This document shows positions 52,687-53,376 of a stretch of DNA of 64,000 nt, one piece after another. This stretch comes from Dehalococcoidia bacterium UBA1162 (GTDB lineage: Bacteria; Chloroflexota; Dehalococcoidia; GIF9; UBA5629). The stretch covers positions 73,852-137,851 of the forward strand of contig DBZK01000037.1 of the NCBI GenBank assembly GCA_002311135.1, given 5' to 3'. The position numbers were made by a program, and so were the translations under genes. The notes under the pieces are model-generated. The model was not told where the DNA came from, did not search any database, and saw only the letters and a list, made by a program, of their open reading frames with translations. Every line of letters begins with the position of its first letter. Within the stretch, counting starts at the first letter, position 1.

Positions 52687-53376
52687 TTGTCAAGAATCCA
52701 GGGCTATGAGAGGAAACGAGTGCTTAACCGGTTAATAAAAGCAATATGCAGGTTAAACAAAGAGGAAGCAGGTACAAACGGCCTTGATACAGCCATAATA
52801 TTAATCGCATTCGTTACGGTGGCGGCGGTTTTCGGCTATGCAGTATTGAGCGCGGGACTTTTCTCCGCCGAAAGGGGCAAAGAGACCGTTTATGCGGGCC
52901 TGGCGGAAGCTAAAAGCAACCTGGAGCTTTCAGGCTCGGTTATAGCCCTGGGGACCCCTACATATATGTTCAACGGTTTTCCCGTGGAGGGTACGGCGAA
53001 CTCTGTCATGTTCACCCTCAAGAATGGTCCTGCAGGCGCCCCCATAGACATGACCCCCAACGGCGGCGCCACGCAAGGCCATAATAAATGCGTAATAACC
53101 CTGACTACAGCCGAGTGGTACGATAATAATGTGACCTGGTATTACGCTCCCCTTGGCGCGGATAACGGCAATAACTTGCTGGAGCCGGGCGAACAATTTG
53201 AGATAACTATAGATTTCGGGAATCTTGGTGCAGATCCGCACCTCAACCCTTACATGAATCCCGACCTGCATGCCAATGACACTTTCACTATTCAGGTGAA
53301 GCCCAATGTCGGGTCGACTATTACTATCCAGCGGAAACTACCGGCGGCTATTGACAGCGTTATGGACCTGCATTAG
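52687..53376 (+). CDS. archaellin-like (archaeal flagellin FlaB/ArlB-type N-terminus) class-III signal-peptide protein
   Basis: After a basic leader (...RLNKEEAG) comes [43 protein letters not shown]. This aligns position-for-position with archaellin N-termini of the KKG|[30 protein letters not shown]...GKE...GL type. The real start is probably GTG at 52720, 6 nt after GAGAGGA. Two N-x-T sequons. Confidence 0.55.
   Translation: [229 protein letters not shown]

Follow-up and report, generated by a model that had tools for sequence, protein, structure and literature searches.

Chloroflexota archaellum gene clusters have been reported from 243 of 3,780 genomes, including Dehalococcoidia, and some of these genomes also encode type IVa pili (PMC12488501). 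In Litorilinea aerophila, the structure of the archaellum was solved by cryo-EM and swimming was demonstrated. The archaellin peptidase is encoded outside of the arl locus and, in Chloroflexota other than SAR202, is proposed to be a bacterial-type PilD (PMC12488501). Lim et al. (2023, PMC10444878) identified flaB in 40 of 212 Dehalococcoidia genomes and found that 'Ca. Lucifugimonas marina' (SAR202) has an arl cluster with tandem flaB genes as well as scattered extra flaB genes. (Palmer et al. 2023 concerns remnants of bacterial flagella, not archaella.) A 2026 bioRxiv preprint on chemosensory-archaellum coupling contains no text on archaellin paralogues. Both the archaella of Chloroflexota and the scattered flaB genes of Dehalococcoidia have thus been published already, in 2023 and 2025.

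Here, we describe a solitary archaellin gene in a 64 kb stretch of Dehalococcoidia DNA, which we will call the window. The first 25 kb of the window hold housekeeping genes, a type IVa pilus cluster occupies 25.6-39.2 kb, and the rest is unrelated. The archaellin gene lies in an intact and uninterrupted open reading frame (52687..53376, + strand), between a divergent gene of the ThiF family (51491..52543, - strand) and a convergent rpoD (53392..54921, - strand). We propose, with a probability of roughly 0.8, that it encodes a functional extra ArlB paralogue of an archaellated member of the Dehalococcoidia: a separately regulated minor or alternative subunit that would be cut by a PilD-type peptidase and polymerised by ArlI and ArlJ. 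The features of the gene are:

52638..52664, + strand: promoter-like sequence TTGAAT-N15-TATAAT, made up of invariant columns in an alignment of four orthologues

52708..52714, + strand: Shine-Dalgarno-like sequence GAGAGGA, which lies 5 nt ahead of the GTG start codon, read from the sequence and conserved in the orthologues

52720..53376, + strand: archaellin coding sequence (arlB paralogue), 218 amino acids plus stop codon, from Pfam PF01917, phmmer against PDB sequences, and an AlphaFold2 model with Foldseek; start codon from the orthologue alignment

52720..52773, + strand: predicted class III (prepilin-type) leader of 18 residues, with cleavage after Gly18 (Gly29 in the 229-aa numbering)

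52780..52911, + strand: predicted N-terminal hydrophobic alpha-helix, which would form the filament core, from the DSSP helix in the model and the identity of the core to other ArlBs of the genome

52921..53373, + strand: predicted C-terminal beta-sandwich globular domain, from the strands in the model; alignment gives two loop insertions

The exact archaellin protein is found on one contig, JBEKIP010000002.1 (689 kb) of GCA_050011675.1, an assembly from peat that is described as 'MAG: Dehalococcoidia bacterium.' NCBI annotates the gene (ABSB31_04095) as a 'hypothetical protein' that begins at TTG 52687. The true start is almost certainly GTG 52720, and the annotated start is 33 nt too far upstream, because the GTG aligns with an ATG in all three orthologues in the upstream alignment, because GAGAGGA lies just ahead of it, and because the stretch 52687-52719 has frame-breaking indels in the orthologues. 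At the other end of the gene, a scan for consensus promoters and terminators found no terminator in the 15-bp gap before the stop codon of the convergent rpoD.

The initial annotation, which was made from the sequence, identified this gene as an archaellin, and it is a genuine one. The protein matches Arch_flagellin (PF01917) with 81.8 bits (E = 9.1e-23), well above the cut-off of 29.5, and the match covers the whole model (residues 29-216 in the 229-aa numbering; model positions 1-162 of 162). When we used phmmer to compare the protein to the sequences in PDB, the best match was 9i5h_C (full length, E = 1.3e-30), whose sequence is the same as in entries 9SIE and 9SII; the next matches were archaeal archaellins. 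9SIE and 9SII are the bacterial archaellum of L. aerophila (Nat Microbiol 2025, PMC12488501). The initial annotation had also named a Litorilinea-type archaellum in Chloroflexota as a precedent, and this was apt: the host MAG belongs to the Dehalococcoidia, and among solved structures the ArlB filament of L. aerophila is the closest. The archaellin has over 1,600 homologues, and those with a named host are almost all from Dehalococcoidia. No bacterial pilin family explains the protein as well. A Pfam scan of the archaellin at E ≤ 10 found neither N_methyl (PF07963, type IV pilin), which is present in the window's PilA at 39.2 bits, nor the Flp family. Similarly, there is no EY after the cleavage site, as in the Flp/Tad pilin motif G/xxxxEY (the slash marks cleavage). 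The NCBIfam 'flagellin' model PRK08541 gave just 13.9 bits, far below its cut-off of 210, which probably explains why the gene is annotated as a hypothetical protein.

The N-terminus has the features of a class III signal: a short charged leader, Gly at -1, and then a hydrophobic segment of about 30 residues. Cleavage is predicted after Gly18, and in the PDB alignment the mature ArlB chain of L. aerophila begins (residue 1) at this site. The Gly at -1 is nearly invariant across alignments of 24 and 107 homologues, and the N-terminal motif aligns column for column with over 100 of them. The predicted mature N-terminus is T1 N2 G3 L4 D5, with Asp at +5, whereas the sequence in nearly all relatives is M-T-G-L-E, in which Glu takes the fifth position. 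The cleavage context as a whole (A at -2, T at +1, D at +5) is atypical and differs from that of nearly all paralogues, in which the residues are mostly K, R or Q (-2), M (+1), and E (+5); this could mean that the protein is processed differently or has a different role. We considered the A at -2 as a sign of a different peptidase and dropped this idea, as position -2 is Q, S, T or A in other paralogues as well. Because the residue at +5 is acidic (Asp here and Glu in nearly all relatives), archaellins of this family are closer to the bacterial G/FxxxE logic than the initial annotation had assumed. It had held that the protein differs from bacterial type IV pilins (F1/E5), which for position +5 is just half correct.

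From the 107-sequence alignment, we built an AlphaFold2 model, which is confident, with a mean pLDDT of 83.8. In this model, a helix at residues 21-64 (218-aa numbering, from DSSP) is followed by a beta-sandwich with 11 strands. When the model was compared to PDB with Foldseek, the top 17 matches were all archaellins (probability 1.00), with L. aerophila first (E = 3.9e-16) and then Aeropyrum, Halobacterium, Saccharolobus, Methanocaldococcus, Methanospirillum, and others; these were followed by the stator proteins ArlF and ArlG. Thus, the predicted fold is that of an archaellin, with a long N-terminal alpha-helix and a C-terminal beta-sandwich. Profile search and structure prediction, both of which the initial annotation had proposed as checks, bear out its assignment, and neither a different fold nor a better-fitting family turned up.

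The metal-site residues of L. aerophila ArlB are D121, D127, E131, and E134 (PMC12488501). In the PDB alignment (229-aa numbering), E131 and E134 correspond to E166 and E169, which are invariant in the homologue alignment, and D127 is replaced by N162. D121 corresponds approximately to D159, as a 4-residue gap there leaves the register approximate. D121 and E134, the two metal-site residues that PMC12488501 named as conserved (in euryarchaeal and bacterial archaellins), are thus kept.

The window encodes no arlH, arlI, or arlJ, as the initial annotation had noted, and no arl gene lies anywhere from -52 kb to +11 kb of the archaellin. Archaellin genes typically, though not always, precede the machinery genes in the arl operon. 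The genes for the rest of an archaellum turned up elsewhere. We surveyed 80 archaellin loci from species-representative genomes, and in about a third of them an ArlI-like ATPase is encoded some 3 kb further downstream. An arl locus (L043) and an orthologue of the window gene that is 82% identical (L010) are both found on OY970123.1, a complete chromosome of 2.46 Mb. With the ArlJ of L043 as the query, and by listing the members of 90% identity clusters, we found an ArlJ (P0244) that is ABSB31_08025, annotated as 'FlaJ,' and that shares its locus-tag prefix with the window gene. It is encoded on contig JBEKIP010000003.1 of GCA_050011675.1 (locus L091), which is the assembly with the exact window protein. 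The gene order at this locus is response regulators and a histidine kinase, two arlB genes (ABSB31_08055 and ABSB31_08060), a 305-aa protein, ArlG-like, ArlF-like, ArlH, ArlI, ArlJ, and two more genes. The NCBIfam matches are strong for FlaI (672.9 bits; cut-off 550), FlaH (267 bits; cut-off 194), and ArlJ/FlaJ (E = 7.6e-122), and weak for the ArlG-like and ArlF-like proteins. We found no prepilin peptidase at this arl cluster.

By its gene content, then, GCA_050011675.1 encodes a complete archaellum, to which the window gene adds a third arlB paralogue, located away from the other two. (By the ABSB31_ tag, the assembly has at least 3 archaellins, with only the two cluster copies besides this one.) The initial annotation had framed the gene as an orphan in a bacterium whose only visible filament machinery is a type IVa pilus. 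Because a complete arl cluster lies on JBEKIP010000003.1, this framing is an artefact of viewing just 64 kb. The initial annotation had also offered the idea that the gene might point to an archaellum that the bacterium encodes elsewhere, and the search that it suggested found exactly that. It is unlikely that contig JBEKIP010000003.1 was mis-binned, because the complete chromosome OY970123.1 has both kinds of loci. The MAG GCA_054635375.1 also encodes both a solitary copy (P0002) and arl machinery (ArlJ P0122). The archaellin genes of OY970123.1 number at least 9, spread over 6 loci, and an ArlJ identical to that of GCA_050011675.1 is found on 54 contigs.

Mis-binning probably does account for another archaellin locus (L051), which was binned to a MAG of Acidobacteriaceae. 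By blastn, only its archaellin gene matches other loci, and its GC content is like that of Dehalococcoidia. Lim et al. (PMC10444878) assumed mis-binning for FlaBs from outside of the Chloroflexota.

The similarity of the solitary copy to the two cluster ArlBs varies greatly along the protein. In the leader, 5 of 17 residues are identical; in the region of the N-terminal helix, 48 of 57 are; and the 28-residue hydrophobic core is identical to both cluster copies at every position (28/28). In the globular domain, just 69 of 130 residues (53%) are identical, with another 13 gap columns from two insertions. These loops (about PTYMFNGFP and NPYM) are specific to the orthogroup of the solitary copy. 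For comparison, the globular domains of the two cluster ArlBs are 89% identical to each other. Because the core is identical, the solitary copy should be able to pack in the same filament core, and the identity of the core helix suggests that it can co-polymerise with the cluster ArlBs. In a crude neighbor-joining tree, the orthogroup forms a distinct early branch within the radiation of Dehalococcoidia archaellins, far from the Archaeoglobus outgroup. This placement indicates that the orthogroup arose from an old duplication within the lineage, and not from a separate transfer.

The only secretion ATPases, platform protein, and prepilin peptidase in the window are PilB/PilT, PilC, and PilD, as the initial annotation had reported. 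They belong to a secretin-less type IVa pilus cluster that encodes PilD, PilA, PilT, PilM/N, minor pilins, PilC, and PilB. One of these may contribute to the archaellum:

25593..26372, - strand: PilD-type prepilin peptidase (family A24, with the bacterial N-terminal domain; A24_N_bact 111.9 bits, Peptidase_A24 29.4 bits)

By eye, this protein has both of the expected Asp motifs, ITDLESG and GFGDV. Between the window and the arl cluster, it is the only candidate for the archaellin leader peptidase, and it may cut both kinds of subunits. We envision that the preprotein would be inserted into the membrane by its class III leader, and that a PilD-type aspartic prepilin peptidase, possibly the one at 25593-26372, would remove this leader by cutting after Gly18. 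The mature subunit would then be added at the base of the archaellum filament by the ArlI and ArlJ that are encoded on the other contig. It would pack into the filament core along with the cluster ArlBs, by co-assembly or by substitution, and would alter the surface or the properties of the filament.

Alternatively, the pilus cluster might do more than supply a peptidase. The initial annotation had suggested that an archaellin-type subunit might be handled by bacterial type IV pilus machinery, and a subunit that is polymerised by the PilB and PilC encoded 15-27 kb away could form or decorate the pilus. A complete, secretin-less set of pilus genes is present on the same contig, the protein resembles bacterial pilins in its Gly at -1 and its acidic +5 residue, and the cleavage motif of the orthogroup is unlike that of all of the cluster archaellins. 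We nevertheless consider this to be very unlikely. Given that cognate ArlH, ArlI, and ArlJ are encoded in the genome, the pilus machinery is unnecessary for polymerisation and at most the PilD peptidase would be common to both systems. The pilus cluster also has its own major and minor pilins, and the archaellin gene is neither in nor next to the pil operon; the conserved unit is instead thiF-arlB-rpoD. A comparison to the window's PilA (29065..29391) makes the same point. The two proteins resemble each other in having a short basic leader that ends with Gly, a hydrophobic helix, and an acidic residue at +5, and they are probably cut by a common peptidase. However, PilA has the N_methyl sequence G/FTLIE (39.2 bits) and its N-terminus, FTLIELLVV, is unlike the archaellin core that is 100% identical to the cluster ArlBs, while the archaellin has no N_methyl match and belongs to another family of globular folds, with structural neighbours that are all archaellins. 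If PilB and PilC did polymerise the archaellin, this would be a natural case of two type IV filament systems in the same bacterium that exchange an archaeal-type subunit.

The order thiF-arlB-rpoD is kept in four related assemblies, from genomes with about 80-85% nucleotide identity. The solitary locus is thus conserved between genomes whose nucleotide sequences diverge by about 17-20%. The relatives with this order are a JGI peat contig and a Logan contig (P0003, 83% identity), GCA_054635375.1 (P0002, 88%), and OY970123.1 (82%). Between pairs of these archaellins, dN/dS is 0.13-0.15 at a dS of about 0.6. The housekeeping neighbours have similar values (0.06-0.14, with 0.14 for thiF and 0.09-0.11 for rpoD). 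These ratios are those of a gene under purifying selection.

These results bear on the other suggestion of the initial annotation, which was that the gene is a remnant: a duplicated or transferred archaellin that is decaying or silent and has no function at present. Such a fate might be imagined for a lone gene that lies at a distance from the arl operon and whose annotation is just 'hypothetical protein,' and some related loci (L081) do have fragmented archaellin ORFs. However, the reading frame is intact, with no frameshifts observed in the orthologues, and all of the family-invariant residues and the metal-site acids are kept. Furthermore, because dN/dS is in the range of the adjacent housekeeping genes and because synteny is conserved, along with the upstream region, across four assemblies, the gene appears to be maintained. 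We consider a remnant to be the least probable of the explanations that we weighed.

The upstream region also suggests that the gene is regulated separately from the arl cluster. About 90 nt upstream of the annotated start (about 52600-52686) are nearly invariant among the orthologues. Within this block, the promoter-like pattern is T(T/G)GAAT-N15/16-TATAAT, with a spacer of 15 nt in the window genome and 16 nt in the orthologues. Of 98 loci, only the six that belong to the orthogroup contain an 18-mer taken from this block, and the sequence upstream of arlB in the cluster looks unrelated. We infer that the block is a private promoter or operator, with the caveat that a 15-nt spacer is short for sigma-70. 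A simple scan for consensus promoters found no excess over shuffled sequences, and it missed TTGAAT-N15-TATAAT because of the 15-nt spacer. We also considered a riboswitch or other structured leader, and rejected it. In the upstream region, the sole match to Rfam at E ≤ 1 was a chance one to a snoRNA (19 bits, compared to a gathering score of 40), and RNAalifold on the four orthologues gave -4.45 kcal/mol with little covariation; a scan of the whole window at Rfam's gathering scores found no match. A promoter or operator is a better explanation for the conservation.

Minor or alternative archaellins also occur in archaea, such as FlaB3 of Methanococcus, the ArlA/ArlB pairs of haloarchaea, and ecoparalogues. 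In these archaea, the paralogues have a conserved N-terminal helix and divergent outer domains, and they are served by one motor. Because the solitary copy of Dehalococcoidia has an outer domain that is just 53% identical to those of the cluster copies, two extra loops, and its own putative promoter, we propose that it is a separately regulated minor or alternative subunit. By analogy to the archaellins of Methanococcus and haloarchaea, this is its most likely role.

A related possibility is that ArlI and ArlJ do polymerise the protein, into a specialised part of the archaellum (such as a hook-like or cap-like segment) or into a separate adhesive filament that is not used for swimming, so that it would not be an interchangeable subunit of the shaft. 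The orthogroup is an early-branching clade that is distinct from all other paralogues in Dehalococcoidia, it has a unique TNGLD N-terminus besides the two loops and the private regulatory region, and methanogens have minor archaellins that are structurally specialised. However, the identity of the core fits this possibility as well as it fits an alternative shaft subunit, from which a specialised part is not separable by sequence, and there are no co-located accessory genes that point to a separate structure. We view a specialised part as unlikely. The broader claim that the solitary paralogue builds a distinct filament or segment, which in the extreme would be polymerised by the PilB and PilC of the type IVa pilus, seems quite improbable. 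In either case, we favor a minor or alternative subunit of the archaellum that is encoded on the other contig.

What is modestly new here is a conserved solitary orthogroup in Dehalococcoidia from peat and soil, which is characterised by the order thiF-arlB-rpoD, the cleavage motif AG/TNGLD, two extra loops, and a private promoter-like region, together with the corrected start codon. This orthogroup, with its motif and its promoter, is not described in the papers on Chloroflexota archaella (PMC12488501, PMC10444878). Our results add a lineage of Dehalococcoidia from peat to the archaellated Chloroflexota, and with its ArlJ on 54 contigs, the lineage appears to be widespread. The orthogroup could provide a handle on how bacteria regulate alternative archaellum subunits and could help in studying how one bacterial PilD serves both a type IVa pilus and an archaellum. 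For annotation, NCBI labels such archaellins as hypothetical proteins with a start that is 33 nt too far upstream, and calling a gene an orphan from a 64 kb window can be misleading.

How does the solitary archaellin compare to known systems? In archaea, minor archaellins are mostly linked to the operon, whereas this paralogue is found in a bacterium, is unlinked, and has its own promoter-like region. 'Ca. Lucifugimonas marina' belongs to the same class and combines an arl cluster with scattered flaB genes, as do the relatives of the window gene. However, it is a marine member of SAR202, which is a different order, and the relatives of the window gene are MAGs from peat or soil. Also, SAR202 has an archaeal-like PibD, while the window genome has a bacterial-type PilD.

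The closest characterised protein is the ArlB of L. aerophila. The two proteins are in the same Pfam family and can be aligned over their full length, with 40% identity in the Foldseek alignment. They have the combination of a helix and a beta-sandwich (predicted here) and an equivalent cleavage position, and D121, E131, and E134 of L. aerophila are kept as D159, E166, and E169. Both hosts are Chloroflexota that encode arlH, arlI, and arlJ, with a peptidase gene outside of the arl locus. In contrast, D127 is N162 in the window archaellin, which also has two extra surface loops. Furthermore, L. aerophila belongs to the Caldilineae and its arlB heads the arl cluster, while the host of the window gene belongs to the Dehalococcoidia, and the solitary gene is flanked by thiF and rpoD on a different contig than the cluster.

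Both the annotation as deposited and the mechanically called ORF begin the archaellin gene at TTG 52687. When the gene is aligned with its orthologues, indels break the frame across 52687..52719, and the ATG of the orthologues lies opposite GTG 52720. The annotation thus probably extends the N-terminus by 11 codons too many.

Related Dehalococcoidia genomes encode long archaellin paralogues, and one further locus holds fragmented archaellin ORFs (loci of our survey):
L026, 9983..12433: long paralogue
L037, 9902..11005: long paralogue
L041, 2340..3794: long paralogue
L049, 1840..2967: long paralogue
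L081, 9061..10616: four fragmented, overlapping archaellin ORFs (MAG MFD04492.bin.2.15)

The long paralogues have a mature length of about 330-470 amino acids and are never inside the arl cluster. In the alignment, the usual ...VMDL C-terminus is followed by a second, duplicated beta-sandwich-like domain. The fragmented ORFs of L081 are either pseudogenised paralogues or the product of indel errors in a long-read assembly.

Archaellin genes were also found in two MAGs with other labels:
L051, CAVQAJ010000009.1: Acidobacteriaceae-labelled MAG; on a 1.47 Mb contig, roughly 1.3-1.9 kb in from one of its ends
L022, DNOQ01000384.1: Bacteroidales-labelled MAG

The GC content of L051 (0.42-0.53) is similar to that of the Dehalococcoidia loci, and its match to the other loci is confined to the archaellin gene itself. 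Both cases are probably due to mis-binning or a chimeric contig end rather than to archaellins outside the Chloroflexota.

An ArlJ identical to that of the MAG GCA_050011675.1 (P0244, ABSB31_08025) is recorded on 54 contigs of up to 2.2 Mb (L090-L097) from many JGI, ENA, and Logan samples, so the archaellated Dehalococcoidia species of the window appears to be widespread. Its complete arl cluster, at L091 (contig JBEKIP010000003.1), has regulatory neighbors:
L091, 1139..4062: regulatory genes ahead of this arl cluster

These encode a GAF-HisKA_3 hybrid kinase/response regulator, a GerE-type response regulator, and a single-domain response regulator; a PAS-HD protein follows the cluster. This arrangement suggests control by a two-component system or a nucleotide second messenger, and not by an adjacent che operon.

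Four more features belong to the window, the first three of them in or next to the type IVa pilus cluster (25.6-39.2 kb):
26377..28845, - strand: 822-aa polytopic membrane protein, between pilD and pilA
37807..39228, - strand: 473-aa protein, immediately upstream of pilB
39421..42816, + strand: 1131-aa ORF adjoining the cluster
42855..47130: methyltransferase, a 353-aa gene lacking annotation, and a pair of GT4 glycosyltransferases, consecutive; the archaellin gene lies about 6-10 kb downstream

The 473-aa protein contains TackOD1 (the "thaumarchaeal output domain"; 131.5 bits) as well as similarity to the restriction-endonuclease-like Mrr_cat, and is an unusual partner for a type IVa pilus operon. 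The 1131-aa ORF had no Pfam match at E <= 0.001. The gene row at 42855..47130 might be linked to surface-filament glycosylation. The 822-aa protein has matches to Wzy_C (O-antigen ligase) and TPR, both below threshold. Because Wzy_C is present in pilin O-oligosaccharyltransferases, this protein could glycosylate PilA or the archaellins. In Litorilinea aerophila, another member of the Chloroflexota, the archaellin ArlB possibly carries O-glycans.
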